DNA of 64,000 nt from an uncultured Nitrososphaerales archaeon. Its GTDB lineage: Archaea > Thermoproteota > Nitrososphaeria > Nitrososphaerales > Nitrososphaeraceae. A program made the position numbers and the translations under genes. The stretch's first letter is position 1. The number at the start of each line of letters is the position of its first letter. This document shows positions 29,029 through 58,831 of this stretch, piece by piece. The stretch is taken from assembly GCA_963709405.1 (NCBI GenBank), contig CAVPXM010000060.1, positions 32,439 to 96,438 on the forward strand, given 5' to 3'. The notes under the pieces were generated by a model, which was not told where the DNA came from, made no database searches, and worked only from the letters and a program-made list of their open reading frames with translations.

Positions 29029-29046
29029 ATTCTCGAGATTGAGAAT
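29029..29046. promoter_or_regulatory. ATTCTC-N6-GAGAAT palindrome upstream of the FTR1 TATA box
   Basis: ATTCTC GAGATT GAGAAT; TTTATAAG at 29018-29011 on the minus strand. Confidence 0.7.
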
Positions 29047-29374
29047 GACGTGATATGATGAGTGCAGATCTGTTGGGCTGGTATCACATTTTATACTGGC
29101 GTTATTCCCAAGTCAACAATAAACACTAAATGTTAGTAATAATGGTAATACCAAATGCAGTTGGATCCCATTTTGCTCAGTAAGTTTTTAAAGATATAAA
29201 TCTTTGTACTAAAAGTTGAGTGGTTGCACGGTATTCCTGAACTCTAAAGAAATGGAGATCGATTAGCTATATCGTTATAGCATAGTACCAACACAAAAAG
29301 GGAAGATGACAGCAGAACGTGGTATAATTAGGAAGCATTAAGAGTAATCAATTCTAACTCATACAGGACGGCCC

Positions 29375-29566
29375 TTGACTCGAAGTACATATTGTACTAA
29401 TTGCAAGAAGAATGTCGAAATGATAGAGGAGAAGTACCTGAAACTAGCTAACAGCCGTCTTGTAATCGAAGGATATTGCTCGGTATGCAAGATAAAGCTG
29501 TTGAAGGCAAAAGTAATGCCACAATCAGGAAAGAAACCACATACCAAATGGAGAAAAAGACACTAA
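29375..29566 (+). CDS. Small basic zinc-ribbon protein (DUF5679-like)
   Basis: YCTNCKK...GYCSVCKIKL. Confidence 0.7.
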   Translation: MTRSTYCTNCKKNVEMIEEKYLKLANSRLVIEGYCSVCKIKLLKAKVMPQSGKKPHTKWRKRH

Positions 29567-29652
29567 ATAATAACTAATGCTAACGATAGATTGGAAATGT
29601 AATGACTATAAATGAAAGAAAGATAAGAATTCAAAATGAGAATTAAAATGCT

Positions 29653-30138
29653 TTATCGTATCTCCAATTTGGCAAGAATATCTTCTATATTCTGTTCGTC
29701 TTCGAGCTCAGCATCGAGCAGATCCAAGGCAAGATTGTAGGATGCATTATCCTTGTCTTTCGTACTGTTAGCCAAGTCATTATACAATTTTATTATGACC
29801 CTTTCAAATTCTAAAGCCTTCTCAAGTGAGCTTCGCAAAGTCAAATATCTAGATGGCTGTAGTTTCCCCAAACCGCTGTCTTGCTCCCACTGAGCAGGAT
29901 CATCGTTAGGAGTAACCTCAAGCTGCATTAATCTAAATGCCACCTTCTTTGAATGTCCTATTTCTTCCTTTGCTCGTTCTTCAAAGAATTTTTGTTCCAA
30001 CACGCCCAAACCTTCGATATTCTGCGAGATATACCAAAAGTAATGAAAAGTTGAAAGCTCGGCGCCATATGCTTTCTTTAACATCTGGACAGTACCTTCG
30101 ATACCAGAGCCAGATATCTCTTTAGCCATCTTACCCAT
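29653..30138 (-). CDS. Ferritin-like/Dps-like di-iron protein
   Basis: LKKAYGAELSTFHY, EERAKEEIGH, ALEFERVIIKLY, AELEDE four-helix carboxylate pattern; own TATA at 30160-30168. Confidence 0.85.
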   Translation of the reverse strand: MGKMAKEISGSGIEGTVQMLKKAYGAELSTFHYFWYISQNIEGLGVLEQKFFEERAKEEIGHSKKVAFRLMQLEVTPNDDPAQWEQDSGLGKLQPSRYLTLRSSLEKALEFERVIIKLYNDLANSTKDKDNASYNLALDLLDAELEDEQNIEDILAKLEIR

Positions 30139-30238
30139 GAATAAATTCCATCTCACAAGTTATTTAAACATTGTCGAAGGGGATCACATTTCACGATAGT
30201 ATGCAAAATACCTAGATTTATAGTGCAGATGGAATCCT

Positions 30239-30493
30239 CTATTCGCTAATGTTTTTATCTTTTCTAGTATTCGGAAGCTCTAAGCCGATTACGCCCATCA
30301 TAGAATCACCTATTGGCTCAAATAGTATTCTTAGAGATTCATTGTCATAAAATCTGGCAATTTCACTTAGTTTAGATTCTATCTTTTTTTGCTCTATCTT
30401 TAAAAGAACATATCTAGCTATTAAGGCCTTTACTTCGTCTGCCTTATCTTCTGGTATCGCATGTTTATTGTTGTTATTACTTTTAGAAGACAT
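30239..30493 (-). CDS. Hypothetical coiled-coil protein
   Basis: 84-aa ATG ORF, co-oriented with 30542..30748 and the ferritin gene. Confidence 0.6.
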   Translation of the reverse strand: MSSKSNNNNKHAIPEDKADEVKALIARYVLLKIEQKKIESKLSEIARFYDNESLRILFEPIGDSMMGVIGLELPNTRKDKNISE

Positions 30494-30541
30494 TACAGTA
30501 TTTCGTTATCTACGTCTGCACAACACATCTTTAATTAATTA

Positions 30542-30748
30542 TTATGGCGCGTTCTTCAATATAGTTACAGGCCCATATCTAACCTGAGTTTCATTCAATG
30601 CATATAACATCTGTTCTAAGGGATCTAGTATACCATCGGTATTCTCACATATAAATATCATAGAGTTATCTTCATCAAATTCTAGCCGATCCTGTTCCTC
30701 ACACCTCTCACTTTTGTTTAAATGAAGAAGTTCTTGTTGTGAAATCAT
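30542..30748 (-). CDS. Small acidic hypothetical protein
   Basis: 68 aa; ATG lies about 28 nt after a TATA box, consistent with a leaderless transcript. Confidence 0.65.
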   Translation of the reverse strand: MISQQELLHLNKSERCEEQDRLEFDEDNSMIFICENTDGILDPLEQMLYALNETQVRYGPVTILKNAP

Positions 30749-30785
30749 TAGGTGCCCCTAATTAGGGGCGTCTAATATTTAAACG
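30748..30785 (-). promoter_or_regulatory. TATA box plus two tandem TTAGG-N4-CCTAA operators
   Basis: TTAGGTGCCCCTAA (30748-61), TTAGGGGCGTCTAA (30762-75), then TATTTAAACG; same layout as 25814-25851. Confidence 0.75.
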
Positions 30786-30798
30786 ATCTTGTTCTCTT

Positions 30799-31760
30799 GG
30801 CTCTGTAGAAACCATGTTTTGAATACCGTTAGAGCTTTCTAGACGTATGATCCAATATGGATGTTGAAAGAATCAAGATATGTTAGGCTGGCAAATACTA
30901 TGTACCGTGTTTTGAAAAATTCAAGGATACCATTGTTTCTTCACAGGAAGAGCAACCATATCTTTACGATGTGGCAGCATCTAGTATTGCTTACAATAAG
31001 ACAGTACGAAGGTAAGAAAGAGTTATAGAATGTTTGTTGAGTGGTTAATTGAAGCGTATTACTTAAGAATCTTTCTACGATTATCACGTATACCTCATTT
31101 TACAACATTGCAGAAATTTACAGAAAGAATTAACAATGCATTGCTCGAAAGGATAATTTCGTCATTCATTGTAATTAGCGGTACCAAGCATATCTTTGTA
31201 GGAATAGATTCGACAGGATTCAAGAAAGATAACTCATGCTTCACAGTATTGTACTGATCGAACAGGATTAGAAAGAAGAAAATATGCGAAATTATCTATT
31301 GGAGCCGATGTATTACTACAAATCATATGTACTATTAAGATAAGACGAGCTCCAACAAGACATGATAATATAGATTTCAAGCCAATCAGTAATAAGGACG
31401 TCAAATATCCTTCCATTATCTGTAGTTACAGCTGATAAGGGATATGATAGTGAAGATAATCATCTTTTGGTAAGAGAAGACTTATGCGTTCAGTGTAATC
31501 CCAGCTCGATATGAGCACGTACCAATATGGAGAACACATGGCAAATACAGAAAGCAGATGAAACGTGGTTACTCCAAATTGCTGTACAATCAACGGAACA
31601 AGGATGAAACCATAATGTCAGTCATAAAACGACTATTTGGAGAGCATCTTATGTCTAGATTGACTAGAACACAGAACAGGGAATTGTCATTCAGATGCAT
31701 AACCTACAACATGCATAGATTGACTAATCTTATAATATTGATGATGGTTTCTACAAAGCC
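30799..31760 (+). mobile_element. Full-length IS5-family element (IS903-like ends) with frameshifted DDE transposase
   Basis: 17-bp TIRs GGCTCTGTAGAAACCAT / ATGGTTTCTACAAAGCC (16/17 match); 9-bp target duplication TGTTCTCTT at 30790-98 and 31761-69; IPHFTTLQKF, GIDSTGF, ADKGYDSE, YNQRNKDETIMSVIKRLFGE. Confidence 0.93.
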
Positions 31761-32136
31761 TGTTCTCTTATAACTTATTGTTATGGGTTTCATCATAAAA
31801 TCAAGACATAGAATATTACATGTGTACTTGGCTTTCTTTCTGTTTTGAGTCGAGGTGACAATGTTAGTTATTTCGACAAAACCTGATATAAGTAGAGCAT
31901 ACTATTAAAGACTAACCTGTATAAAGAGCGTGAAATATCACTTATATAGTAGTAATCCAACGTTCCATAGTCGTTCTCTACGTTCAAGCAAAGCTAAATA
32001 TACAAATAGCATTATACGCGTAGGTTCACAAATTAAAATTAATTGCATATGATGTCCGTACACGAAAGTCGATTTTTCATTTCCGATTTGAGAATCATCC
32101 AAATAAATTAAATATCGTATTAGTGCAGATCTGTTA

Positions 32137-32397
32137 ATGGATTGCGCAGTATATGACACATACGTAGAGAAGAAAGATGGCAAAGTAATGCATTTCGATG
32201 TGATTGTTGAAAAGAGTACACCTCACGAAAGGGCGATTGAGTATGGCAAAAACTATTTGGAAGGTGTTGGCCAAGGAGGTCAAACCATGACCCAAGAAGA
32301 ATGTCAGTTTTGTCATATTCAAAAGGCGCCAGATGCAATTGAGAAAGAAATTTCGTCAAATGGTTTTTTCATACAAGAAATGGAAGGCTGTCCATAG
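32137..32397 (+). CDS. DUF2024-family protein
   Basis: AVYDTYVEKKDGKVMHFDVIV...AIEYGKNYL...ECQFCH. Confidence 0.85.
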   Translation: MDCAVYDTYVEKKDGKVMHFDVIVEKSTPHERAIEYGKNYLEGVGQGGQTMTQEECQFCHIQKAPDAIEKEISSNGFFIQEMEGCP

Positions 32398-32620
32398 TTA
32401 AGAAACTGAGTGGGCATTCATTTTATCTAGGTTAAATTACTTTAATCAATCCTAATTTTTTTGTAAATTATACGAAAATAACGTTTAGTAGAGAATCGGT
32501 TCTAATAGATCTACAGATGTTGCATACATCTCATATTGAATTACTTATCCAACCATACAGCTAAAATTATAGAAATCGTAACTGATTAATAAATGTCTAA
32601 AAATTAGATGCTTTTCCCAT

Positions 32621-33917
32621 CTAATCAGGTATCTTTATATCGTATTGCAATAACAGGCTATCTAAGTACCTCTGGAATTTTCCGTTAGATATTATATCGT
32701 CTGAATAAATTCCTAGTGCGATCACTCTGCCCTGTTTATAATTAAGCTCATAGGAGGCGATTACAGGTTTTTTGTGAAATAAATATTCAGGTACCGAGGC
32801 ATTGTAATTCAACAAAACTATATCTTTAGGGTTGGTAATATACTGTTCTTCATGAGGTTTATATCCGAATGGATCATTAACGAATCTGCTTACACATTTA
32901 TAACACAAGTAATTGCTACCAACCCATTGCGATGTTTCGCTTTTCCACCTCTCATTGATACTCTTCCAAGCGGATTTTCCGTTGAACGTCCAACCGTGGC
33001 CCTTTACTAGTGTTACATCCTGATTATTTCTATCATATTTTACCTGAGCAAAGAAAACATTACCATCCAAGATAATCATCGTTCCCCCATTTGAAACAAA
33101 TTCTTTTAGATTATTATATTCTTCCTGAGTCACGTATTCTTGGTGTCCCAGAATTATTACATCGAACATATTTCTATCTTTAGCATTCTTATCAAAAATT
33201 GACCCATTATCTACATCAGCATCTGATAATACGATGATATTAGAGTCTTGGGTTAACCATTTAAGGTTATTAAGTAAATTAAGCATTGCAAAAGCCGACC
33301 TTGCTGAAGGTGATGTCAAATTAGTACTAGTATTAATTACTTTACTGGAGAGCAGTTTTAAATTAGTAGTCACATTAACTTCAGGTAGGGTGTTAGCGTA
33401 TTTCTTGTAAAACACATAGAAGGCATGATTGTAAGCTCGCAGTTGTAAAGGTGGGATTAACGAGAGCAATCCTTATCCCAGCCCCAAACTCACCAGTATG
33501 TGTATTATTTTCAGGAGTTGATAATTCTCTTTTGTCTTCTGAGAAGGAATAATAGGTGTTGTTATTACCAGAGTTACTACTTACAATACTACCGTTTTTA
33601 TTTACGTTAGCCGAACCGCTAGTAGCCAATCTCTGAGATGAGAGGTTAGAGTTATCCCCATTTCTCATGGTCTCTACTAGTGACAGTGGCGAACTTAGTT
33701 TCTTGAGATCAGGTGGTATAGAATTACTATCTGTTTTACGTAAAGTTACTGGCCGAACTGTTAAGGTCCCGTTTCGATGTGCTAAAGTTATGTTTTGAGC
33801 AAAACCCTGCATGTTCGCTAATAACCTTGTTTCAATGAGTACCAATATTATTATTGAAGTCAGAACTACGGCAATTAGCGGCAAGCTGATAGTTAATGCG
33901 TAAGGAAATTTTCTCAT
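32621..33917 (-). CDS. Secreted protein with N,N-dimethylformamidase beta-subunit-like domain (frameshift near 33445)
   Basis: N-terminal TM; IALVNPTFT..AY, DVIILGHQEYVTQEEYNNLKEFVSNGG, NVFFAQV. Confidence 0.75.
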
Positions 33918-34093
33918 TTATCTATAATGCGAACCTTCCCTTCACATTTTCGTATCTTGTCGAGGTGTCCAAGAATCTTCAACTCCATCTGTTCACACAT
34001 CACATCTGTTCGTATACCTTTTCAAACACCCATTCATTAAGCTTGCAGATCAATATTAATTTGCATATCGCCGCATAATTAAGTAATCGTCCT

Positions 34094-34111
34094 ATTCTCA
34101 GACTTGAGAGT
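34094..34111. promoter_or_regulatory. ATTCTC-N6-GAGAGT palindrome variant
   Basis: One mismatch to consensus; TTAATTAT follows after 11 nt on the minus strand. Confidence 0.5.
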
Positions 34112-34483: not shown

Positions 34484-35212
34484 CTAGTGCATGGTAGCTA
34501 TTCTAGAAGTTTGATCTGGTCTAAATTTATTCCAAAGTAAACCAAAGAACACTCCAATCAGAACAAAAAATATTGCCATAGTTGTCCCGGTCAAGGCTCT
34601 AAATGTATTGACCACAGTCATAGGTATCTCGATTTTATCTGGGTTTGGCTCCCATATAAAATATATCGAAGCGATTGCTACCATATATATTGCCGGTACA
34701 ATATACGAAATTTTAGTAACGCTTCTAAATTTAAAGAACAAGATACCCATGACAAGAGCTATAATTATAGACGCTATCTGAAATGTAGTGTATAAATGGT
34801 CTCTTAAACCGATCGTATCAGGATTGCCTACTGCGGGAGGATTTGGGGGATACTTGGTAAATGGAACTAGATAAATTGCTAGATACATCAATCCTGCCAA
34901 GAGAATAGCCTTCTTTTTATCGTCAGAGAATGGGAGATATTTTCTAACGAATACATAAGCAATTCCCAATAAACCTCCATATGCCATTCCTATAAATGCA
35001 GCCGCAGCAAAGGTTCCAGATTTTTGCCATATCCTATATGAGTTTACTTCGCCAAAATCTACTTTCTCTCCTTTAGCCATATCTTTTTGAAGTTCATAAC
35101 CAATTGCCTTATCTGTTGTGGGCTCCACTATGAATAGATTTATACAGGCTAATATTTCGCCTGCCATGATGCCAGAGATAAGAGAAATGATAATAAAAAG
35201 AAGAGTTTTCAT
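34484..35212 (-). CDS. cbtA: Cobalt transporter CbtA-family subunit
   Basis: VEPTTDKAIGYE, VPFTKYPPNPPAVGNPDTIGLR, multi-TM. Confidence 0.9.
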   Translation of the reverse strand: MKTLLFIIISLISGIMAGEILACINLFIVEPTTDKAIGYELQKDMAKGEKVDFGEVNSYRIWQKSGTFAAAAFIGMAYGGLLGIAYVFVRKYLPFSDDKKKAILLAGLMYLAIYLVPFTKYPPNPPAVGNPDTIGLRDHLYTTFQIASIIIALVMGILFFKFRSVTKISYIVPAIYMVAIASIYFIWEPNPDKIEIPMTVVNTFRALTGTTMAIFFVLIGVFFGLLWNKFRPDQTSRIATMH

Positions 35213-35247
35213 AAGATTAACCTATTGGCATTTCAAAAAAAGTTAAG

Positions 35248-35466
35248 TTAGTGGCATGGAAATCCGGATTCATGTCTTATATCATGCACGAATTCATGTA
35301 ACCACATTGTATCATATGCAGATTTACCTTGTACCAGGCTAAAGATCTGACCTGTATCATAACCTACCGCAAACAAGCTAAATAATGCTATTCCAGCTAA
35401 TATGCCAATACCGATGATCGGAAGTTCACGTCTATACATAATTCTTTGATCTTGGCTAAGACTCAT
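35248..35466 (-). CDS. cbtB: Cobalt transporter CbtB-family subunit
   Basis: Single TM then LHEFVHDIRHESGFPCH; start placed about 25 nt after the TATA box. Confidence 0.9.
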   Translation of the reverse strand: MSLSQDQRIMYRRELPIIGIGILAGIALFSLFAVGYDTGQIFSLVQGKSAYDTMWLHEFVHDIRHESGFPCH

Positions 35467-35501
35467 TTCCATAATAATAGAAATAATATGTATATAAACA
35501 A

Positions 35502-35518
35502 TTGTATGGTTTATCCAA
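35502..35518. promoter_or_regulatory. TTGGATA-N3-TATCCAA-type operator next to the cbtB TATA box
   Basis: TTGGATAAACCATACAA on the minus strand; 15/17 identical to the perfect palindrome at 35786-35802. Confidence 0.55.
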
Positions 35519-35785
35519 CGCATGAATGGGTCAATTAAGAGTTGAATAACAGAATAAATACAACGTCGAATTTACACAAATGTCTTATAAGAAGAGCATA
35601 AGATCTTGAAAGTAATAAATCAGCAGGTATTACCATTTCCAAAACTTTCGTCGGGAAGAAGGAATATTAAATACAATTTTATAAATCGAGGAACATAAAT
35701 CAAGCTACTATATAGTTTGAATTAAAATATCGTTTAATTCCAATTGAGCCGATTCTCATCATGCCGAGAAGAAATTAGCCCTTGA

Positions 35786-37015: not shown

Positions 37016-37660
37016 CTAGACATGATTCTCATGATTCATGATTGTCAATAATGCTGCGCTTTTTGAGGCAAGCTCAGCATTTCTTGGATCTGATTGATCA
37101 CTTCCTATGATTATTGCATCCCCATTCTCTGGCACCAATCTCTTGACCAGCAACTTGTATATCCGCATTTCATTTCTTAACGAATCATACCCCGTTAGGG
37201 GGATTACAAACTTTCCATTTCTATACAATAGAGTTGTGGCACCTAATGCTCCCATTTTCACAGCTGCATCTCTTTGTTCTATTCCAGATTTTATCACAAA
37301 TGCAAGATGTTTTAATAATACACCGTAATTATATTTGCCTAGCGCAACAGAGCATTTAGGAATGACACATTCCGTCGGGATAGATGCATGTAGCTGTGAA
37401 AAGAGGCCAATACCTTTGTCTGATAGTTTGGTTCCGCTATTACTAGTGAGTATCAGGCCTTGCATTTTCAAATGTTTTACTAAAGTTTTGATCGAGCCTT
37501 CTCCTAAATTAAGTTCCTTGCAGAGCAATTCCCTACTGATATGGCCCCTATCATGCATCAGCTGTAACGTTTTAAATATATGTGCCATATCGTAAGAAAG
37601 AATCCTACTTGGTGCGTATCTGCTTGATATTTCCTGTAAGGTCTTAACATAGGTATGCAT
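37016..37660 (-). CDS. wHTH + DUF4443-like transcriptional regulator
   Basis: ISRELLCKELNLGEGSIKTLVKHLK HTH; GIEQRDAAVKMGALGATTL. Confidence 0.82.
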   Translation of the reverse strand: MHTYVKTLQEISSRYAPSRILSYDMAHIFKTLQLMHDRGHISRELLCKELNLGEGSIKTLVKHLKMQGLILTSNSGTKLSDKGIGLFSQLHASIPTECVIPKCSVALGKYNYGVLLKHLAFVIKSGIEQRDAAVKMGALGATTLLYRNGKFVIPLTGYDSLRNEMRIYKLLVKRLVPENGDAIIIGSDQSDPRNAELASKSAALLTIMNHENHV

Positions 37661-38004: not shown

Positions 38005-38439
38005 ATGCCATTAGACAAGTATGACTATGAAAACAGTTTAGGACGTAAGATTGTTATGGCATCTAAGACAGTTCAACAAGCCTTTGATTTAGAATTACAG
38101 AATAGGGTGGATGTTACACTAGCTCAATGGAGAGCAATTAACATTATCCGACTGCAAAGTGGGATCACTCAGAGGGAAATTGCGAACAGATTGAGTTTAG
38201 ATGCATCATCTCTTATACCATTGATCGACAGATTGGAGAGGAAAGGACTTGTTAAAAGAAGAGCTGATATTGATGATAGACGTATAAACAGACTGTATCT
38301 CACTGAGAAAGCTGAATCTCTATTAGATCCAATGTATGCGTGTGCTATATCAGTCAAGAAAATCTTGACCAAAGATATCTCAGACGACCATATAAAAGTA
38401 CTTCAGGATTGTCTCGAGAGAGGATTACAGAAGGTATAG
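38005..38439 (+). CDS. MarR-family transcriptional regulator
   Basis: TLAQW...ITQREIA...IDRLERKGLVKRRADIDDRRINRLYLTEKA. Confidence 0.92.
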   Translation: MPLDKYDYENSLGRKIVMASKTVQQAFDLELQNRVDVTLAQWRAINIIRLQSGITQREIANRLSLDASSLIPLIDRLERKGLVKRRADIDDRRINRLYLTEKAESLLDPMYACAISVKKILTKDISDDHIKVLQDCLERGLQKV

Positions 38440-42833: not shown

Positions 42834-44468
42834 ATGAAAGGAGACCCATTTAGCAATAAAAGAAATCAAAAGGATAACAAATCGAGACGGGAGCCATCAT
42901 CGGATATAAAATCCAATGTATCAGTGACTTCTGAAAAAATAAGAACTTCAGTATGGATTACGATTGCCATTCTAGGATCTACCATTCTAATTACTATGTA
43001 TGGTGAGACGATGCTATTACCAGCAATTAGAGATATCATTCGAGATTTTAATATTTCATATAGTACATCTTCTTGGATACTTACAGCGTATCTTATCTCA
43101 GGTGCAGTTGCAACTCCCATTGCTGGCAAGCTATCTGATATTCATGGACGAAAGAAAATGGTTCTATCGATTCTCATAATCTATATTGTAGGAATCAGTA
43201 TTGGGGGATTCTCAACAAATCTGTCCATGCTTCTCATTGCAAGAATTATTCAAGGAATAGGTATATCCATGTTCCCCATAGCCTTTGGAATCATAAGAGA
43301 TCAACTTCCTAAGGATAAACTTGCCATAGGGGTTGGAGTATTCAGCTCGATGTTTGCAGCGGGATCCGTAGTCGGATTGGCCATAGGTGGAAATGTGATT
43401 CAAATCTTCGGCTGGCATGCAACATTTCTTTCGATAGTACCTATTGCAATTAGCCTCTGGATAATCATCAAGAGATTCATTTCTTGCGACAAGAGAGATA
43501 GAGTGGTCGAAGCAGAAAACGATAAGTCACGAGCAGATGTTAAGACTCGGCCTACCAAGATGTATTTACCCGATAATGGTGATAGAGTTCCTAATAATAG
43601 CGGAAGGCACAGCCTTGATGTAAAGGGTGCTATAACATTGGCCGCTACCATTGCTTCTTTTTTACTGATGCTAACCTATATTGGTAACAGTAATAACAGT
43701 AGTAGTAACGGCAGCGCATATCCCACCCAGATCATAGTAATATCACTTGCACTTTTGTCCCTAGGATCATTACTGCTATTTATTGTTGTAGAAAAGAGAG
43801 CATCGAAACCCTTAATTGAGCTCAGTCTAATGACAAATGCAATACTTCTTCCTGCAAATATCATTATCTTGATATTTGGATTGACTATGTTTATGGTCTA
43901 TCAGACTATACCAATATTGGTAAGAAGTCCTCATCCTCTTGGATTTGGCGGAGATGCCCTAGAGAGCGCGATGGTTCAGCTACCATTCATGTTAGTATTT
44001 TTAATATTCGCTCCTGCCTCAGGATTCATCGTTTCCAAGATGGGCAATCTTAAACCGACTATAGCAGGAACTCTTGTAATGACAATTGGTTTTTTCATGC
44101 TCTTTATGTTCCATTCTACAGAATTTTTGGTTGCAATAAATCTGGCGATAGTAGCCATTGGAATTTCGGCTATACAAGTCGGTGCATTTAATATCACAAT
44201 GGAGTATACTCCTCGCCAATTTAGTGGAGTATCACTTGGTATGTCAGTAGTACTAGTATTGGTTGGAAGCTCAATTGGACCTGTGATTGCGGCAACATAT
44301 ATGCAGACCCATCAGGAGCTTGCGGGAGGAGTCATCACTGGTCTTTTTCCTTCACCGATATCTTATAAACTGATATTTTTAACTGCATCGATTATCTCAA
44401 TTATATCTATTGTACTTGTTATGATTTTAAAGCGAAAGGTGACACAAGCAACTGTGACGAAGTTATAA
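42834..44468 (+). CDS. MFS transporter, 14-TM drug:H+ antiporter type
   Basis: SWILTAYL, GKLSDIHGRKK (motif A), ARIIQGIG, VEKRASKPLIEL. Confidence 0.93.
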   Translation: MKGDPFSNKRNQKDNKSRREPSSDIKSNVSVTSEKIRTSVWITIAILGSTILITMYGETMLLPAIRDIIRDFNISYSTSSWILTAYLISGAVATPIAGKLSDIHGRKKMVLSILIIYIVGISIGGFSTNLSMLLIARIIQGIGISMFPIAFGIIRDQLPKDKLAIGVGVFSSMFAAGSVVGLAIGGNVIQIFGWHATFLSIVPIAISLWIIIKRFISCDKRDRVVEAENDKSRADVKTRPTKMYLPDNGDRVPNNSGRHSLDVKGAITLAATIASFLLMLTYIGNSNNSSSNGSAYPTQIIVISLALLSLGSLLLFIVVEKRASKPLIELSLMTNAILLPANIIILIFGLTMFMVYQTIPILVRSPHPLGFGGDALESAMVQLPFMLVFLIFAPASGFIVSKMGNLKPTIAGTLVMTIGFFMLFMFHSTEFLVAINLAIVAIGISAIQVGAFNITMEYTPRQFSGVSLGMSVVLVLVGSSIGPVIAATYMQTHQELAGGVITGLFPSPISYKLIFLTASIISIISIVLVMILKRKVTQATVTKL

Positions 44469-45651: not shown

Positions 45652-46539
45652 TTAATGCTTGTGCAAGTGCTCATCAGCGTGTAGATGAGGATGTGTATGT
45701 TTGATCAAGCCATGTGAATGTGAATGATAAGCCTTACGTATAAACGCGTATAGCGAGCAGATCCCAAATGCACCGGCCCCGAATAGCACTATTGTTGAGC
45801 CAGATGCAGAATCAAAAAAGAAGCTGGAATACATGCCAAGGAAAGCTGTTGCAATACCAATTACAGATGAGAGTATAACCATTCTAAGAAAATTATTAGT
45901 AAGCATCCTAGCCGAGATAGCAGGTGCTACGATAGCAGCTGCCAGTAAAGTTACTCCGATGCTATTCATTGAAGCTATTACAACTAGTGCAAGAACCAGA
46001 GCAAACACTATTTCAAGGATTTCGGTTCTTATGCCATATACTGCCGCAGTTTCTTTATCAAACGATGCAAACAATAGCCTTTTTTGGAAGAAGAAAACAA
46101 AGACGACGGTCAATATCGAAACCATGATAATAACTGATAGGTCTTGATCAGTTATACCAAGAATATTACCAAATAGGATAGCTTCAAAGTTTCTATGAAA
46201 GCCTTGTGAGCAGTAATGAACAAAACACCTATCGCAAATCCGGCTGTTGTTACTACACCTATAGCAGCATCTGGCTTGATTTTTCTGCGCCTACTAATTT
46301 CGTTTATAAGTACCGCAGACAGAAATCCCCAAATTGCAGCCCCCAAATAATAATTAAACCCTATGACATAACTCACTACCGCTCCCCCAAATACGGCATG
46401 GGACATGCCATGCCCTATGTAGCTCATTCCACGTAACACGATATAAACTCCCAAGAGACCACATGTTCCTCCTACGAGGACCCGCAGCAATGATTCCCCT
46501 TGTGAAAAACTCGTACTGGAATGGGCTTAAGAAATCCAT
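45652..46539 (-). CDS. Metal ABC transporter permease (ZnuB/MntB family) with His-rich tail; frameshifted
   Basis: CGLLGVYIVLRGMSYIGHGMSHAVFGG, DAAIG, SFDKETAAVYGI; ends HSHSHGLIKHTHPHLHADEHLHKH. Confidence 0.9.
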
Positions 46540-46551
46540 ATACTAAAATTA

Positions 46552-47508
46552 TCACTCCGGTTCTTGATTGGTATCAAGTCCTCTGTTGTGAGCATCTAAA
46601 GTATTGGAAATCGAAAGACTATCTTTGTTACCTCCCAGGCTATTGATATCTGTTGCCAATCCGTATGTCTTTAATAGATTTTCAGAGGTAAGTACTTCAT
46701 TTGGCGGTCCTTGTGAAATTATGGTTTTATTGATACACACCACCCATGGAAGACGTTTTCCTAAACCAGTAATGTCATGTGTAGTCAGAATTATTGTCAT
46801 TCCTTTCGAGTTTAAATCAGTTAAAATCCCATAAATTTTTTCCCGAGTATTGTAGTCTACCCCTGAAGTGGGCTCGTCTAATATCAGAATTTGTGGATTG
46901 CTTATTAACGCTCTGGCCAGGAAAACTCTTTGTTGTTCTCCACCAGAGAGCTCTCTAATTTGTCTTTTTGCATGATCTGCGATACCCAAGCTGCCAAGCA
47001 TATGTTGTAATTTTTCTTTGGAATTCCTACTAAACCACGGATAGATGCCTGAATGATTCCATATACCCATTCCAACCACCTCGGTGACGGTGACAGGAAA
47101 GTTCCAATCTACACTTTCGATCTGTGGGACATACCCTATCGAAGAAAATGAGGTTTGTATAGAATTCTTTATGGGATTTACTAAATATGAAATCAGCGAA
47201 ACTGGGTTAGAATTGATCGTTTTTGTATAATTCTTTTTACTAGAACCAAATTCGATATATCCATGCCATGGTCTATGAAGACCGACAATAATCTTCAGAA
47301 GAGTAGATTTGCCTGAGCCACTGGGTCCCAATAAGCCCAAAAATCTACCTTTAGGAACATCAAGGTTTATTCCTTCGAGCACCGGATTATGTGGAATATA
47401 GCCAAATGCCAAATCTCGTATTGTTAATATATTTCCTAATTTATGATTAAGGTCGCGATTTACAATTTCCCTTTTTCCTTGCAATGACTTATGGCCCATA
47501 TTATACAA
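46552..47508 (-). CDS. Metal ABC transporter ATP-binding protein
   Basis: GPSGSGKST, GYVPQ..VDWNFP, LSGGEQQR, LDEPT, THD. Confidence 0.93.
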   Translation of the reverse strand: MYNMGHKSLQGKREIVNRDLNHKLGNILTIRDLAFGYIPHNPVLEGINLDVPKGRFLGLLGPSGSGKSTLLKIIVGLHRPWHGYIEFGSSKKNYTKTINSNPVSLISYLVNPIKNSIQTSFSSIGYVPQIESVDWNFPVTVTEVVGMGIWNHSGIYPWFSRNSKEKLQHMLGSLGIADHAKRQIRELSGGEQQRVFLARALISNPQILILDEPTSGVDYNTREKIYGILTDLNSKGMTIILTTHDITGLGKRLPWVVCINKTIISQGPPNEVLTSENLLKTYGLATDINSLGGNKDSLSISNTLDAHNRGLDTNQEPE

Positions 47509-48124
47509 TCATCCTTGCAAGTAAATTATAATTGGTTACATATCGCTGATCGATGAAACAAATCAAATTCTTGCTGAAATATTCTTCTAACGAATAGCTA
47601 ATCATAGATTTTGCCACAAGGTTATGAAAGTCTAAGTGTTTAAAGGTGTAGAGGTATATATGATCAAGATCCAAATAGAATTTCCTCCTCTTGTTCTTCC
47701 CATAGGAACTGTTGATAATCAAGTTCCCACCATTGTAGCAAGTTGTGAAGGCGTTTGTAAGAGTAAAGTGGATTGAGTAGGATGATACCTATTAAAGGTC
47801 TTGATTGCATCATCAACAAATAACTCAATTGATTTCCATGATCCTGTCGTAGATTTGCATATCACAAAATTGTTATATTTTCTTACTATTTCTTGTGGAA
47901 GTCCAGCAGGCTGAATTTTCCAGGAAAGATAATGATAGAAATCGCTCCTCATTTCAGTAGACTGAATCCCCTTGTCGACCGAATCCGTGATTGCAAACCT
48001 CTCCGTGTTATCCGTGTTGTATCCTCTGTCGCTATCTCTACCTCTCAACAATCCTGACCTACCTTGAATCAAAGAGAAGTGGAAGGAATTGTTGGCTACT
48101 CAGACATACCTTGGTGTCAGTCAT
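47501..48124 (-). CDS. Possible frameshifted hypothetical gene inside the ABC operon
   Basis: Abutting ORFs 47719..48072 and 47501..47722 fill the gap; ATG at 48124 follows the SBP stop and the last stop overlaps the ATPase start. Confidence 0.3.
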
Positions 48125-48134
48125 GGGCGTATCA

Positions 48135-49212
48135 TCAACCACTGCTATGTACAAAGGTGTTGGCTGGATTTATGCCAGATAGAGCTGAGACGTTACCACC
48201 TAACGGTATTATCATACCATTCATGTCCTGCAGCATCATTCCGACGTAGGTGTGATTCGGATCAGTTGGCTTTCCAGGTAAGACATCATCGGCCAGTGTA
48301 TTGACATATTTTACGTTTCCTTCTTTGCCAATTTGATCCATCACCTTGCTGGGAAATACTTCAGAACCGAATAGTGCTGGCACTTTCTCATTTCGTACCT
48401 GATCTATCAGCTTTGCTACTTCTTGTGGCTTTGGTTCTCCAAAATCAGATGGCTGAACGGCACCTATCACAATCATACCGTACCGTGGAGCAAAATATGC
48501 CCAGGAATCATGATAAGTTAACAATTTTCTATTCTGAGGCGGGATTGTTTGGACTGCACTCTTTATTCCCACGTCCAACTTCTTTAGCAAAGCCAGATAT
48601 TTGTCTGTGTTAGTCTTGTAATATGCTCGCGTTTCCGGGATCCATTTGGATTAACTTATTTTTCGTAAGGTTTGCATAATTCATAGCGTTTGCAACATTA
48701 AGCCAAAGATGTGGATTAGGGTCTCCCTTCTCTTTTGGAAAGCTAAAATCGTAAATCCGTTGGTCTCTGTTTATTGTGTTATCTGCCAATTTAAGGAGTT
48801 GCTGGTTTGGATTGTGTGCTCTGGATGCGTTCGAAACTTTTTCCACACCCGATTCCAAGTGCAATCCATTGATTATCACCAAATCTGCATTCTGTACCTT
48901 TACTGCACCCGATGGGGTTAATTCAAATGTGTGAGAGTCTACACCGTCAGGGATTAGTTGATTAAGTCCAATCTTATCACCTGCTATATTTTTCACGATA
49001 TTAGCAATAGGAGCAACTGACGTGACGACGTTAAGCACCTTACTATTTGCAGGTTTATCTCTTCCACTAAAACTATTGGTATTAAGAGTAACTGCGAATG
49101 AAGCACTTTTCAAATTATGTGATATGGCAGCATTGGCCATGGCCGAATTACCAACCAGGATTGATATTATAGATAGCATACCGATTGCCGATATGAGTCT
49201 ACCGAATACCAT
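48135..49212 (-). CDS. Metal ABC transporter substrate-binding protein (ZnuA/TroA family); frameshift near 48615
   Basis: GVDSHTFE, DPNPHLWL, TYHDSWAYFAPRYG, EP.P.EVAKL. Confidence 0.92.
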
Positions 49213-49252
49213 TCCATATACTTGAGAAAGTAGGTATTAAAAGTTTTATAGC

Positions 49253-49273
49253 TAGTAATAATCACTATTACTA
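49253..49273. promoter_or_regulatory. Perfect inverted repeat TAGTAATA-N5-TATTACTA upstream of the SBP TATA box (candidate NikR-type operator)
   Basis: 8-bp arms; TTTTAATA at 49242-49235 (minus), ATG at 49212. Confidence 0.55.
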
Positions 49274-49736
49274 TAATTGCAAATATTAGTATCGTAGCAT
49301 GCCACTAGTGCTTTTTGCGAATCTTTATTGCAATAGTACAATCAGGCTTTCATTTATGAATAACACAAGTTCAAAAGCTTCGTTGAGTATAAAGCTTTTA
49401 ATAAATAAAAATCACCAGACTAATGATGAGTTCAAAAGAAACATTGGGAGATTCCGATTGCGGTCATACTGCCGAAGAATGTATTCAAAGATGGTATTAA
49501 GGCTGCACAGAAATCGTTCATCATCACCATACCCACGATTAATGGACGTTTTTCATAAATCAACTAGTGCTCATTTACATATTTATTTGTGATCCAGATG
49601 TTTTGCGTCTGTAATTCCTGACCATGGATAACTGACGGTTAAGTTAATCGATAACGACAAAGTGATATCAGGCCAAATACCAAACAAAGTTTGGGGAGTC
49701 AACTCTGAATACGATACAACATTCTAAAGGATGAGA

Positions 49737-50183
49737 TCAAAACGTGGTCACAAAGTGGAGTTTTAGACTTTTAATACCTCGGTTTTCTGACAAATACTTA
49801 GTTAATTCCTTTATCTTCTTAATTTCTCCCCTTACCATAATAGTTTCTAAGCAATTGTCAGCCTCTAAATGTAGGTGCGTAGTTGCTCCAATAACATCTT
49901 GATATTCATGCTGAACTTGAATCGATTTTTCATCTTGATTATAGACATGATTGTCATAAACTATTATAATCGCACCTGCTCCGAACTGTTTATCTCCAGT
50001 ATTCCAATCATAATCATTCACAAATGAATGAATCGCAGTTTGAAGGGCTTTAGATCTATCTGTGTAGCCAGATTTTAGCATGCTTTTATCAAATTCTACT
50101 AATAATTTTGTAGGCAATGACATACTTATCCTAGTGACAGGTTCTCTTTTTTTATGATCACTAAGCAAATATCTTTTCTTCAA
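49737..50183 (-). CDS. nikR: NikR-family ribbon-helix-helix metal-responsive regulator
   Basis: VTRISMSLP..LL.EFD...GY.DRSKA; QHEY...THLHL...CLE keeps the His3/Cys site. Confidence 0.85.
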   Translation of the reverse strand: MKKRYLLSDHKKREPVTRISMSLPTKLLVEFDKSMLKSGYTDRSKALQTAIHSFVNDYDWNTGDKQFGAGAIIIVYDNHVYNQDEKSIQVQHEYQDVIGATTHLHLEADNCLETIMVRGEIKKIKELTKYLSENRGIKSLKLHFVTTF

Positions 50184-54860: not shown

Positions 54861-54945
54861 AGATGAAAACACGCCATGAATAGCATACTTGTTCTTATCA
54901 CCAAAATGACGGTAATAAGATAATGCACAATGTCATCTTACATTG
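54861..54945. repeat. Dispersed ~85-bp repeat, copy 1 (copy 2 at 57912-57996)
   Basis: AGATGAAAA.ACGCCATGAATAGCATA...CCAAAA.GA.GGTAATAA...GTCAT.TTACATT is shared between the copies. Confidence 0.8.
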
Positions 54946-55012
54946 AACAAAATTTGCGGCATATTAGTAATACTGAAAGAAAATAAGTGGCGTCTGTCCC
55001 TCAGTAATTCCG

Positions 55013-55597: not shown

Positions 55598-55642
55598 TTT
55601 CTTGATATAATCGGCTTCCATCAGTATTTAATCGAATACTCA

Positions 55643-55660
55643 ATTCTCTTTTTTGAGAAT
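55643..55660. promoter_or_regulatory. ATTCTC-N6-GAGAAT palindrome upstream of the cupredoxin TATA box
   Basis: ATTCTC TTTTTT GAGAAT; TTAAATA follows after 11 nt on the minus strand. Confidence 0.7.
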
Positions 55661-56219
55661 ATCGATTCTAGAATCCTATCAATAATCAGAAATGCAACCT
55701 ACTCTAATATATCGAACTTGTTATGATATGAACTTACTGAAATGAATCTATTCTTAATTCAAAGTGTAGATTCGTGTATTTACGTGCTCATCTCCGGATA
55801 TGATAGACTAGAACTACGAAAGAAAATTTTGTTACGTGTCTAAACGACAATATGTTATTCGTACCTAATAGTACATCTGCAAAGTTTTATTTTATAGCCG
55901 AAGATTCGCAACAAAAAGTTTGTAATTTATTTTGATTTCTTGTCTATTTATCTGTTAGCGCTGAATTGTGCTTTATATAGTCACTTAGAGATAGATTTCA
56001 GAATTGTCAAACATGGGTTTGCAGATAAATATTTAAAATTGATAAGAAGATGAAATTCCTTCTCTATTTCCATTCCCATGCTTTGAATGTATAATTTCCA
56101 CCTTCATCCTGCTCTAGCTCAATACTATCATCTTGTTATTCAGGGTATTGGAACTACTACTAGGTGCTGTTCCGCCTATAGTCGTAATTCGAGATGATTC
56201 TCTACTGCTAGATCCACAT

Positions 56220-56489
56220 GAATTATTCAGTTTGGTTATATCGTCAATTGTATAGGAACCCACTTTATTATTTTCTCCGTACATTATACCCTTTCCATTG
56301 ACTTAGCCAATAAATTCATGCGCTAGTCTTACCCGCATTTTCCAAACGGTACTAATGGGCGATGCCTTCGAATTTTAAGCTACCTAGTCCAGATATCTCT
56401 GCAATTGGTTCTGGTATGTTGTTATCAACTACGCTTATTCCGGCCTGTTTGCCATTCTCTTCGAAAACTAATTCACCTAGAGCCATTAA
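56220..56489 (-). pseudogene. Decayed hypothetical gene (MALGELVFEE...)
   Basis: Coding-like sequence continues past stops and frameshifts (...VNGKGIMYGENNKVGSYT). Confidence 0.45.
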
Positions 56490-56629
56490 ATTTCCATCTT
56501 CCTTTGATTCAAATTTGACTACATTTATTTTCATCTCCGTGTCTCATTGTTGATTCTACTGTATGCGACTCGATATTGAGGATTACATTATAGTCTAAGT
56601 TCACAAGAGATAGACAAATTCATAATAGT

Positions 56630-56863
56630 GAAAAATCTTTCATTTTTATAGAAACAGTTTTTGGCTGCACAGATTTGGCACTGGAACAACTTATGAAGAT
56701 TAAAGAAATGAAAAGATACTGCAAACTTTTTGGTATGTACGATATCGTTGTGGAAAATGAAGCGCAAACAATGCAGAAGTTAAACGAGGTAATCACTAAT
56801 AAAATAAAAAGTCTACGGACTATAAGGTCCACTACTACTACCAGGGTGAAAGATGAAAAATAG
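56630..56863 (+). CDS. Lrp/AsnC ligand-binding-domain protein (start codon degenerate)
   Basis: KSFIFIETVFG...LFGMYDIVV..EAQTMQKLNEVITNKIKSLRTIRSTTT. Confidence 0.75.
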   Translation, partial: EKSFIFIETVFGCTDLALEQLMKIKEMKRYCKLFGMYDIVVENEAQTMQKLNEVITNKIKSLRTIRSTTTTRVKDEK

Positions 56864-56925
56864 GTACTTGTCCTATGATCTAGTGAGGAATTAGTCCTTG
56901 GCCCATTTAGTTTATGCTCAGGTGA

Positions 56926-57069
56926 TTAAACTTTAATATTGTATCCGAAGTACCTTTTCCTGCGAGTGAAGCAGTAGCACATACAGACCGCAGCCGGTAG
57001 GTAGGCCGGTCCGTGTTGTTTGGTAAAGATGACGTGGTCTCGCTGGTCATGGCCACATATACAGCTCAT
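56926..57069 (-). CDS. 47-aa Cys/His-rich mini-protein (below the ORF-track cutoff)
   Basis: MSCICGHDQRDHVIFTKQHGPAYLPAAVCMCYCFTRRKRYFGYNIKV; paralog at 50430-50578. Confidence 0.55.
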   Translation of the reverse strand: MSCICGHDQRDHVIFTKQHGPAYLPAAVCMCYCFTRRKRYFGYNIKV

Positions 57070-57261
57070 GGTCGTCGCTTCCTTATCTTTGAGTATGTGA
57101 GAAAGTTGGCCATTGCGTTCAATCTTCCAACTACCAAAATCAATAATGAAATTAATTCTATATCACTCATATCATTTACCAATTCCTTTTAAATCTTCTG
57201 GAAAAGCGTCAAAACACGTACATATCAGACTTATAGGTCACATACATTTCAGACTAGTTAA

Positions 57262-57694
57262 ATGAAAAATGATAAATTACTTGTAGTTAGCTTAATCGTG
57301 ACGGTGAGTTGTACAGTACCTAGCAACTCTTGTATGGCCTGTATCTTCTTTTGCGCAGCAGCCATCAACAACAGTGCCAACAAACAAGATAGTCTACTTG
57401 TTCAATTCACATCTCCCTGACGCTAATGAAACGAAGTTAGGAATACCAACAGATTTGTTTGCTCCTTCATCCATTACCGTGAACAAAGGCGATACTGTGA
57501 CGGTGCATTTCTACAATACTGAGCAAGGAGAACCACACACCTTTACGCTAGGTGCACCGTACAACATCGACAAAAACGTGTCACCCGGACAAAATTCAAC
57601 AATTGTTTTTAAGGCAGACCATGAAGGAGTTTTCCAGTATTACTGTAAGTATCATCTTCCGACGATGGGAGGGCAACTGGTTGTCCTTCATTAG
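57262..57694 (+). CDS. Secreted cupredoxin, paralog of 55013..55597 (frameshift in the signal region)
   Basis: NETKLGIP shared with the paralog; HTFT...YYCKYHLPTMGGQLVV; MKNDKLLVVSLIV start at 57262. Confidence 0.88.
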
Positions 57695-57757
57695 GACGAT
57701 TTCTAACACAGAGATTCTAATAAAAAATAATCAAATTTAAGAGAGAAAGGTAATTAG

Positions 57758-57925
57758 TGCTCTGTTGCATGATTTGTCATGATTAGTTTGTGTAAGCCGA
57801 TGGTTATATCATTCAATTGAATATCTTATACAGAGTTGCTTTTAGAAGGATTTCCTTTACCATGTTAGGAAATTTTCTAGCTGTTATATGGTCACCAAAC
57901 ATTCTTTTAATAGATGAAAAGACGC
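57758..57925 (-). mobile_element. IS5-family right-end remnant
   Basis: Minus strand reads VFSSIKRMFGDHITARKFPNMVKEILLKATLYKIFN*, followed by TIR TGCTCTGTTGCAT at 57758. Confidence 0.75.
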
Positions 57926-57996
57926 CATGAATAGCATATTTATTGATATCTCCAAAAAGATGGTAATAATAAAATACAAAACGTCATATTACATTA
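57912..57996. repeat. Dispersed ~85-bp repeat, copy 2
   Basis: Homologous to 54861-54945, same orientation. Confidence 0.8.
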
Positions 57997-58204
57997 AAGG
58001 AATACTAATGGCCACTACTTAGCTCTATAATCTAAGTATTTCAACCTAAGGCATACATGTACAAACAAGATTCCTTTAGCTGAAATCAACCAAATATTGA
58101 CTCGATGTTATCACAATCGCACCGAACTTCGAAACATAGATCAGATCAAATAATTTTGATAATACGCCCAATTCTTGATGGCTTGATCTTGGTGAATAAT
58201 AAAA

Positions 58205-58763
58205 TTAAGGCGCAGACAGAATTTTTTCAGCCCGTTCTAGATTGATATTAATTTTGCTAATCAGTGTTTGAATATCACCTAATGGAGCTTTATGTTTTAT
58301 TTGTTGCCTCAGATCTCCTCTTATCATGAATTCAGTGTTCTGTTTTAAAGTTTTATCATGTTGCTGCAACGGTCCTTCAACGAACTCAAAGTTATCTAGA
58401 TACGCTTTAGCCGCAAGAGTCAAGGCACCTGTATAATTCTGCTTTTGATAAGCGCCAAGAGTTTGGTTTAAAAGCTGTTGTACGTTCGAAATATATTGAA
58501 GTGTCTTGCTATTTGAATCAGTCCTTGATCCAGTCACTGAGGAACTCCCATTTTGACTTTCATTCTTTGTTACGAAATTGTTACTTTTAGTAACATTTGC
58601 TCCATTACCTGCTGCCAACTGCCAATACTTTAGAATTATTTGAGGCAGATATCAATAATATCTGTGATAGCGAAGATGTACAGATCAATACTGTGAAGGC
58701 GATTATTGTAAATCCTATTATTGCTCTATCGCTGTGTGTTGGTATGTTAAATCGATCTTTCAT
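58205..58763 (-). CDS. Secreted protein consisting of one FTR1-type extracellular helical repeat (frameshift near 58620)
   Basis: MKDRFNIP...IGFTIIAFTVL signal; AYLDNFEFVEGPL..HDK.LK..E..IR..LR matches the FTR1 repeats. Confidence 0.8.
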
Positions 58764-58813
58764 CGTTTAAATCCCCTGAAGATAATTGAAAAAGGGATTT
58801 ATTCTAATCGATG

Positions 58814-58831
58814 ATTCTCAATAATGAGATT
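58814..58831. promoter_or_regulatory. ATTCTC-N6-GAGATT palindrome variant
   Basis: One mismatch to consensus; ATAAAT follows after 11 nt on the minus strand; ATG at 58763. Confidence 0.65.

Follow-up and report, generated by a model that had tools for sequence, protein, structure and literature searches.

A conserved promoter palindrome, ATTCTC-N6-GAGAAT, as the predicted operator of a metal-uptake regulon in Nitrososphaeraceae

Introduction

Ammonia-oxidising archaea drive nitrification in soils, and how they acquire iron is largely guesswork. A 64,000-nucleotide (nt) stretch of DNA from an uncultured Nitrososphaerales archaeon (assembly GCA_963709405.1, contig CAVPXM010000060.1, positions 32,439 to 96,438; hereafter the window) raises the question of whether genes scattered along such a genome answer to one operator. 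The palindrome ATTCTC-N6-GAGAAT lies upstream of four genes of the window, which encode an FTR1-family iron permease, a cupredoxin-domain protein, a free copy of the FTR1 N-terminal repeat and a DMFA2_C-like protein. An earlier note had taken it for the operator of an iron-uptake regulon spread over 30 kb. We find that the palindrome is very probably a conserved operator of a metal-uptake regulon, judging from its number, its promoter position and its retention in related genomes. From sequence patterns we infer which factor binds which motif, whether it activates or represses, and to which metal the genes respond.

Results

Four copies of the palindrome in the window

The exact palindrome occurs twice in the window, where 0.01 copies are expected, and four copies are found when one mismatch is allowed, against 0.28 expected (Table 1). 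Neither count was reached in any of 100 dinucleotide-preserving shuffles of the window. The two perfect and two one-mismatch copies of the earlier note were all recovered where it had placed them, and the comparison with shuffled DNA puts their number far above chance. No extra enrichment is seen in the window at up to two mismatches (7 found, 5.68 expected; 34 of the 100 shuffles reach 7). Exact inverted repeats of the two hexamers occur in the window solely at N6 (2 copies), all other spacers from N0 to N12 giving 0, and the everted and direct-repeat arrangements also have 0 exact copies there. Dyad symmetry with such a fixed spacing is what is expected of a dimeric helix-turn-helix factor.

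A 36-nt weight matrix was trained on 21 non-redundant sites of the 24 outside the window. Read in the gene-facing orientation, sites 1, 3, 4 and 2 score 29.1, 26.4, 20.8 and 20.3, respectively. The next-best score in the window, reverse readings of the four palindromes excepted, is 9.6, and the maxima of 100 block-shuffled windows average 11.5, with a top value of 19.1. The matrix scan of the window found no fifth palindrome site; as the best other score falls below the null maximum of 19.1, we conclude that the window holds exactly four. The flanks of these copies have nothing in common except the motif and a TATA element.

All four target genes are on the minus strand and each palindrome faces its gene. 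The gene labels given in the earlier note hold up in Pfam matches and in an alignment of the repeats. The FTR1 domain in the open reading frame (ORF) at 26217-28625 matches PF03239 (E = 5e-20) and the DMFA2_C-like domain in ORF 32621-33469 matches PF20254 (E = 1e-9). ORF 58205-58618 is 35% and 32% identical to the two N-terminal repeats of the window FTR1 (E = 1e-14 and 2e-11).

A fixed distance to the TATA box

In the window, exactly 10 nt separate each palindrome, gene-ward, from a TATA-like 8-mer. Among the 34 sites with up to one mismatch (the four of the window and 30 from the related loci described below), 25 have the 8-mer at an offset of 10 nt, and any other offset between 0 and 30 is seen at 3 sites at most. 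This agrees with the earlier claim of a fixed distance, which had been counted as 11 nt followed by a hexamer or heptamer. A fixed short distance 5′ of TATA is the placement expected of an upstream activator site. In archaea, transcription starts about 22-25 nt after the TATA 8-mer, and on this reckoning the palindrome would span roughly -42 to -59, with its centre near -50.

The start codons of two targets fit this arrangement. The ATG of the free FTR1-repeat gene is 32 nt past the 8-mer. The first ATG of the cupredoxin gene is just 3 nt past it, and a second in-frame ATG (55597), which opens a hydrophobic signal segment, is 27 nt past. Going by the TATA distance, this second ATG is likely the true start, on a leaderless or short-leader mRNA. 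Distances of 27 and 32 nt suit the leaderless or short-leader mRNAs of archaea.

Conservation of the palindrome in related genomes

An alignment of FTR1 homologues was used to fetch 80 FTR1 loci (labelled L001 and so on), 985,835 bases in total. Their source genomes are species representatives and are all Nitrososphaeraceae or Nitrososphaera-type metagenome-assembled genomes. The loci contain 30 copies of the palindrome, 13 of them exact and 17 with one mismatch. Spacings other than N6 yield 0-1 exact copies, except N11 with four. We rejected N11 as an independent spacing class, as the four copies are two homologous pairs and one pair is inside the DMFA2-like coding region. An ATTCTC-N11-GAGAAT copy followed by a TATA-like element was noted between the DMFA2-like gene and FTR1 (L001:3973 and L007:9209); it includes an N6 version with two mismatches.

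As expected of a regulon, orthologues of the target genes keep the site. FTR1 promoters carry the palindrome with up to one mismatch, in one conserved place, in 12 of the 73 loci that have upstream DNA (Table 1), and a degenerate palindrome is found at the same place in L008, L009 and L011. The FTR1-promoter palindromes of the loci are always followed, after 10 nt, by a TTTATAA or TTTAAAT element, and L001-L004, L007 and L079 share both the TATA 8-mer type of the window FTR1 and its offset. The free FTR1-repeat gene stands behind a palindrome in six other genomes (L006, L011, L019, L022, L026 and L032), and in palindrome-bearing FTR1-repeat genes the TATA 8-mer is 19-32 nt from the ATG, a distance that one would expect of leaderless mRNAs. 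The DMFA2-like gene is behind an exact palindrome in two loci, L001 (1911) and L007 (7147), where its leader is also about 160 nt long. In these orthologous promoters the palindrome is kept while the flanks have diverged. The earlier proposal of a shared operator upstream of the TFB recognition element (BRE) and TATA box is supported by the orthologous promoters, by the fixed spacing and TATA distance and by the number of copies.

No orthologue of the cupredoxin was found in the 80 FTR1 loci. One locus encodes a 280-aa (amino acid) fusion of an FTR1-type repeat with a plastocyanin/azurin-type copper domain, behind an exact palindrome (L011:5476-6318, minus strand), and this fusion indicates a functional tie between the cupredoxin and repeat protein that are separate targets in the window. 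In addition, we noted a variant palindrome, ATTTTC-N6-GAAAAT, 10 nt from a TTTAAATA box and before a gene for a 346-aa exported protein (L042:9256 and L062:9264, both minus strand). It may be a diverged operator or the site of another factor.

Could the copies lack a regulatory role, being chance matches or part of a sequence that is repeated or mobile? There are just four in the window, the half-site is AT-rich and so is the genome (GC 0.34-0.43). Against this stand the shuffles, none of which reaches the counts, the enrichment of N6 alone, the fixed TATA offset, the unlike flanks of the window copies and the retention of the motif in orthologous promoters whose flanks have diverged. We regard this explanation as very improbable.

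A second motif with the arms of a DtxR operator

A second motif, TTAGG-N4-CCTAA, is present as an exact copy in 70 of the 80 loci, often as two abutting 14-mers directly after a TTTAAATA-type TATA box. We classified the 68 FTR1 promoters that have at least 250 nt of upstream DNA: 53 have the exact TTAGG box alone, 11 have the ATTCTC palindrome, three have a palindrome and an exact TTAGG box upstream (L009-L011, the palindrome being degenerate in L009 and L011), and one has neither motif. The exact boxes of L009 and L011 we assigned to the divergent promoter of a winged helix-turn-helix (wHTH) gene, not to FTR1.

TTAGG-N4-CCTAA has the same outer arms, TTAGG...CCTAA, as the published DtxR consensus, and in the established mode of DtxR the metal-loaded repressor acts from operator boxes (PMC7762939; here and below, published systems are described as far as the available parts of the cited texts go). 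The ATTCTC palindrome has no arm in common with the DtxR/IdeR consensus in the available text of the same source. TTAGG-N4-CCTAA looks like a DtxR-family operator, which metal-loaded DtxR would bind. DtxR-family genes (Pfam PF01325 and PF02742; for example L036 2853-3326) occur in 36 of the 80 loci and in most cases adjoin FTR1. The link to iron made in the earlier note is strengthened, in that the FTR1 and FTR1-repeat families carry these DtxR-like boxes in place of the palindrome in most related lineages, and in that the candidate regulator gene described below is itself preceded by them.

A candidate regulator next to FTR1

Directly downstream of FTR1 the window encodes a 110-aa winged-helix protein (wHTH110). 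A TATA 8-mer and tandem TTAGG boxes directly precede the wHTH gene in the window and in all 15 loci that have both an intact wHTH gene and readable upstream DNA. No palindrome was seen before wHTH110 in the window, hence there is no sign of autoregulation there; in L022 and L036 a palindrome lies upstream of a single-box promoter.

A wHTH110 homologue is encoded in 17 of the 80 loci, usually adjoining FTR1. A palindrome-type site (matrix score of at least 14) is found in 15 of these 17 loci, compared with 11 of the 63 loci without the homologue (Fisher p = 1e-7, calculated over related, non-independent genomes and with a matrix trained on the same loci). Of the two wHTH loci lacking a site, L005 lacks upstream DNA and the other is L064; among the 11 loci with a site and no detectable wHTH gene, some are short contigs and some sites have low scores. 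Conversely, among the 29 loci where a DtxR gene is present but a wHTH gene is not, 27 have TTAGG boxes and only four a palindrome-type site. Together, the two tallies pair DtxR with TTAGG-N4-CCTAA and wHTH110 with ATTCTC-N6-GAGAAT.

By sequence, wHTH110 has distant resemblances to known regulators. It scores 22.1 bits against TrmB (PF01978; cut-off 25.6), and 25.7 and 19.6 bits against the NCBIfam models Sta1 (cut-off 80) and Lrs14 (cut-off 90), and so falls below the cut-off in each case. A sequence search of the PDB gave nothing better than E = 0.03, and no precomputed Pfam domain is recorded for 22 near homologue clusters. The family is unannotated; a profile search gathered 985 representatives at E ≤ 1e-3 and 171 at E ≤ 1e-10. 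An AlphaFold2 model based on 15 orthologues (predicted local distance difference test score, pLDDT, 81) shows a winged helix that leads into a four-stranded sheet. Foldseek matched this model to the ArsR-like PH1932, the heat-shock regulator Phr and SmtB (E = 4e-4 to 3e-3, TM-score 0.5-0.68), and the predicted structure has the ArsR/SmtB winged-helix fold. The recognition helix begins with residues that do not vary among the 15 orthologues (S55, S56, T57, Y58 and K60). No Cys or His is invariant among them, and the ArsR/SmtB cluster of metal ligands is lacking.

On the co-occurrence and the genomic neighbourhood, we lean towards wHTH110 as the predicted binder of the palindrome. Another factor might bind the palindrome of the same regulon, with wHTH110 binding something else, such as its own TTAGG boxes. 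The sites in loci with no detectable wHTH gene nearby would suit this, and the TTAGG boxes that always accompany the wHTH110 promoter would fit autoregulation too. Yet the boxes are exact in 70 loci and wHTH110 is found in just 17, and in the 29 loci with DtxR only, boxes are the rule and palindrome-type sites few. Other binders could be encoded outside the window or, inside it, by the DUF4443/wHTH gene (37016-37660) or the MarR gene (38005-38439); neither was seen beside the motif in the related loci, where no systematic search for them was made. Overall, we consider a different binder rather unlikely.

The proposed circuit

We propose that a dimeric transcription factor, most likely wHTH110, binds ATTCTC-N6-GAGAAT. 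With sufficient metal, a DtxR-family repressor encoded elsewhere in the genome would block the wHTH110 promoter. When metal is short, wHTH110 would be made and would occupy the palindrome beside BRE/TATA, and the bound protein would help transcription factor B (TFB) and TATA-binding protein (TBP) to load, switching on the four genes. Since wHTH110 lacks a sensor domain as well as conserved Cys and His residues, how active it is would depend on how much of it is made. The regulon would consist of FTR1, the cupredoxin, the free FTR1-repeat protein and the DMFA2_C-like exported protein, with the cupredoxin as the likely ferroxidase-type partner of FTR1 and iron as the most likely metal. For the whole cascade, from DtxR through wHTH110 and the palindrome to the uptake genes, our confidence is moderate at most.

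The sign of regulation we read from the layout of the promoters. If metal-loaded DtxR represses from the boxes, which cover the interval from TATA to start, wHTH110 would be made only at low metal. We take wHTH110 for an activator because only then would FTR1 respond alike where it is controlled directly by TTAGG boxes and where it is controlled indirectly; provided that wHTH110 does pair with the palindrome, activation is likely.

The factor could instead be a repressor that blocks the contact between TFB and BRE, the genes being derepressed when it departs. The 10-nt gap includes the BRE position, and the footprint of a dimer could overlap it. But if wHTH110 is made only with the TTAGG boxes free, FTR1 would then be off exactly when the TTAGG-controlled FTR1 genes of other lineages turn on, and sites of the haloarchaeal regulator OxsR upstream of BRE/TATA go with activation, those downstream with repression (PMC9426492). 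Repression from the palindrome seems improbable to us.

A response to copper or manganese rather than iron has to be weighed as well. A cupredoxin is among the targets, the L011 fusion joins the repeat to a plastocyanin-type domain, the DtxR-like protein scores best against MntR models, and further metal genes (CbtAB, NikR, ZnuA/ABC-3) abound in the window. However, the anchor gene encodes an FTR1-family iron permease, and copper-protein or cupredoxin partners are the rule in FTR1-type iron uptake (Fet3, EfeO, FtrB). Moreover, the copper-limitation motifs of Nitrososphaera viennensis are different sequences (PMC7785015). We therefore give a copper or manganese regulon little weight beside one that responds to iron.

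Proposed direct and indirect control in different lineages

In 11 Nitrososphaera-type loci, a promoter with TATA and tandem boxes is followed by a 52-60-aa ORF and then by FTR1 (remnant loci, Table 1). The short ORF is the N-terminal half of a wHTH gene, cut within the recognition helix, and it looks as if FTR1 has captured the regulator's promoter in these loci. In L041 the wHTH remnant is gone and the boxes directly precede FTR1. A large FTR1-repeat protein starts right after tandem boxes in remnant-type lineages (e.g., L053). Given that the same genes stand behind boxes or behind the palindrome depending on the lineage, control would be direct, through TTAGG boxes, in some lineages and through the palindrome in others. 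In a tree of 75 FTR1 sequences (FastTree, midpoint-rooted; six loci with a frame shorter than 600 aa from the match start were left out), sequences of the palindrome class group in two separate clades, those of the remnant class in a single one.

Six promoters with palindrome, TATA and TTAGG-type boxes lack a downstream ORF of more than 53 aa (Table 1). The word GGATTGGCATC is common to four of the six ORF-less transcripts and is absent from the window. In single-sequence folds of the L036, L032 and L071 transcripts it is in a small hairpin, with a strong stem-loop downstream, and four of the six transcripts have folding z-scores between -4.3 and -6.3. The L071 region has no match in Rfam at E values up to 1. 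We consider these transcripts candidates for an iron-responsive small RNA. A two-tier circuit that has been rewired repeatedly, its middle tier short-circuited in some lineages and the RNA of about 150 nt perhaps acting as a third, post-transcriptional arm, is a tentative picture that we hold to be possible rather than likely.

Observations at odds with the circuit

Several observations beyond the imperfect co-occurrence above weigh against the reading that we prefer. No DtxR-family gene was found in the window by tblastn, and the best NCBIfam matches of the DtxR-like protein of the related loci are MntR and DtxR models, all below cut-off. A ferritin-like operon stands behind TTAGG boxes in the window, which is unexpected for a storage gene under a repressor that acts when iron is replete. 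From the TATA 8-mer to the ATG, the leaders are long in FTR1 (80 nt) and the DMFA2-like gene (158 nt), and another TATA-like element (28957-28962) is closer to the FTR1 start; at these two genes the palindrome-linked TATA box is only presumed to be the one in use. With its edge 10 nt from TATA, the site might in addition get in the way of TFB.

Finally, frame shifts interrupt three of the four target genes of the window (FTR1, DMFA2-like and FTR1-repeat). The window FTR1 has at least two relative to the intact 899-aa homologue P0005, to which it is 99% identical, and the DMFA2-like orthologues of L001 and L007 are intact at 431 aa. Split ORFs also affect housekeeping genes of the window, namely those for V-ATPase AC39, a hydantoinase, an ABC-3 permease and ZnuA (Table 1). 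As these are split as well, assembly indel errors seem more likely than four coincident pseudogenes.

Other features of the window

A second promoter with TATA and tandem TTAGG boxes precedes a trio of genes, for proteins of 68 and 84 aa and a ferritin-like protein. L079, L036, L032, L058, L071, L038 and L052 all keep the trio together with its boxes, and the 68-aa and 84-aa proteins have no family match in Pfam or NCBIfam. A hydantoinase/oxoprolinase gene has a single exact box between its start and a TATA-like element; this box may be functional or a chance match. The window also encodes CbtA/CbtB cobalt transporter subunits, a major facilitator superfamily (MFS) transporter and a ZnuA/ABC-3/ABC-ATPase system beside a NikR-type regulator. 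A second cupredoxin, 53% identical to the target cupredoxin, has no palindrome. Near the window end is an IS4/IS5-type transposase fragment.

Table 1. Positions of the palindromes, TATA elements, TTAGG boxes and genes discussed in the text. Positions refer to the window unless a locus is named; a point in the strand column means no strand.
Feature	Position	Strand	Remarks
Palindrome site 1, ATTCTCGAGATTGAGAAT, exact	29029..29046	.	upstream of FTR1; kept in orthologous FTR1 promoters
Palindrome site 2, one mismatch	34094..34111	.	upstream of DMFA2_C-like gene
Palindrome site 3, ATTCTCTTTTTTGAGAAT, exact	55643..55660	.	upstream of cupredoxin gene
Palindrome site 4, one mismatch	58814..58831	.	upstream of free FTR1-repeat gene
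TATA-like 8-mer, FTR1 promoter	29011..29018	-	10 nt from site 1
TATA-like 8-mer, DMFA2_C-like gene	34076..34083	-	10 nt from site 2
TATA-like 8-mer, cupredoxin gene	55625..55632	-	10 nt from site 3
TATA-like 8-mer, FTR1-repeat gene	58796..58803	-	10 nt from site 4
FTR1-family iron permease, long N-terminal repeat domain	26217..28930	-	ORFs of 80 aa and 802 aa
DMFA2_C-like protein, membrane-anchored or secreted	32621..33917	-	ORFs of 174 aa and 282 aa
Cupredoxin-domain protein, signal/transmembrane segment	55013..55621	-	Pfam PF13473, E = 2e-10
Free FTR1-N-terminal-repeat protein, signal/transmembrane segment	58205..58763	-	ORFs of 52 aa and 137 aa
wHTH110, 110-aa winged-helix protein	25475..25807	-	directly downstream of FTR1
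wHTH110 promoter	25814..25849	-	TATA 8-mer 25842-25849, abutting tandem boxes 25814-25841, 6 nt, ATG
TTAGG-N4-CCTAA, tandem pair	25814-25841		
TTAGG-N4-CCTAA, tandem pair	30748-30775		
TTAGG-N4-CCTAA, single box	10487-10500		
TATA and tandem TTAGG-box promoter	30748..30783	-	before 68-aa ORF, 84-aa ORF and ferritin-like gene
68-aa ORF	30542-30748		trio
84-aa ORF	30239-30493		trio
Ferritin-like gene	29653-30138		trio
Split genes	7275-8347, 10512-12639, 45652-46490, 48135-49212, 26217-28930, 32621-33917, 58205-58763		adjacent or overlapping ORF pairs
Metal-gene regions	34484-35523, 42834-44468, 45652-50183, 57374-57694		
Transposase fragment (DUF4096)	63406-63717		IS4/IS5-type
Palindrome-bearing FTR1 promoters	L001-L004, L006, L007, L010, L019, L026, L036, L047, L079		
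Remnant loci	L053:6220-6440; same place in L030, L034, L044, L045, L048, L050, L056, L057, L061, L065		
ORF-less promoters	L032:6044-6233	-	
	L071:2904-3093	-	
	L036:7296-7485	+	
	L022:2527-2716	+	
	L067:1488-1677	-	
	L041:5110-5299	-	

Discussion

Relation to known regulatory systems

Two-tier iron circuits are known from bacteria, where a repressor that senses metal governs a second, sensor-less regulator (Corynebacterium DtxR-RipA; Fur-PvdS and Fur-RyhB). These differ from the circuit proposed here in following bacterial RNA polymerase and promoter logic and in having an AraC-type repressor, a sigma factor or a small RNA as the second tier. In archaea, the Thermococcales glycolytic motif (TrmBL1/Tgr) likewise consists of two inverted hexamers separated by a short spacer of fixed length, and where it lies with respect to BRE/TATA determines whether regulation is positive or negative; it differs from the palindrome in sequence, spacer, regulator size and regulon, which is sugar metabolism.

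Among the closest known likenesses to wHTH110 is OxsR of Haloferax volcanii, a small, single-domain TrmB/Lrs14-like protein that consists of the winged-helix domain only and is predicted to form a homodimer; its motif, when upstream of BRE/TATA as the palindrome is, goes with activation (PMC9426492). OxsR senses oxidants by a conserved cysteine and binds a CG-rich semipalindrome (PMC9426492), whereas wHTH110 lacks an invariant Cys, would bind an AT-rich site of 6-N6-6 layout and is presumably controlled by amount. Activator sites next to BRE, like the palindrome, are described for TFB-RF1 of Pyrococcus furiosus and for EarA of Methanococcus and Pyrococcus (PMC5937170, PMC5512572). TFB recruitment is presumed for both, as in our proposal, and the protein families, motifs and regulons are others.

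Multi-factor iron networks of haloarchaea are built from the DtxR-family proteins Idr1, Idr2, SirR and TroR (PMC5737653, PMC3074139, PMC10783522). There the partners are all DtxR paralogues, whereas the second tier proposed here is an unrelated 110-aa winged-helix protein, in another phylum, with its site in a fixed position relative to TATA. Promoter motifs have also been published for N. viennensis under copper limitation; they come from the same family of organisms and lie upstream of the start codons of metal-responsive genes (PMC7785015). The two consensus sequences have no resemblance to ATTCTC-N6-GAGAAT or TTAGG-N4-CCTAA, and FTR1 is mentioned 0 times in the available text of that paper (PMC7785015).

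In openly accessible papers, searched without their supplements, we came across no account of the motif or of an iron regulon of ammonia-oxidising archaea, and no factor-operator pair described for these organisms. In kind, the system would be an ordinary factor-operator regulon with archaeal activator geometry, combined with a cascade from sensor to secondary regulator as known from bacteria. Novelty would lie in the motif, in the family of the candidate factor, in the phylum and in the rewiring from direct to indirect control or back that can be seen among lineages.

Implications for metal uptake in ammonia-oxidising archaea

We know of no genetic system for ammonia-oxidising archaea. An operator with fixed geometry would allow the genes that are switched on together with FTR1 to be listed from sequence. 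FTR1 without a Fet3 partner has been noted in published work (PMC9723733), and the palindrome nominates candidates for the missing partners, namely the cupredoxin, the free FTR1-repeat protein and the DMFA2_C-like exported protein. If the circuit is as proposed, the same uptake genes would have moved between direct repression and indirect activation within a single archaeal family.

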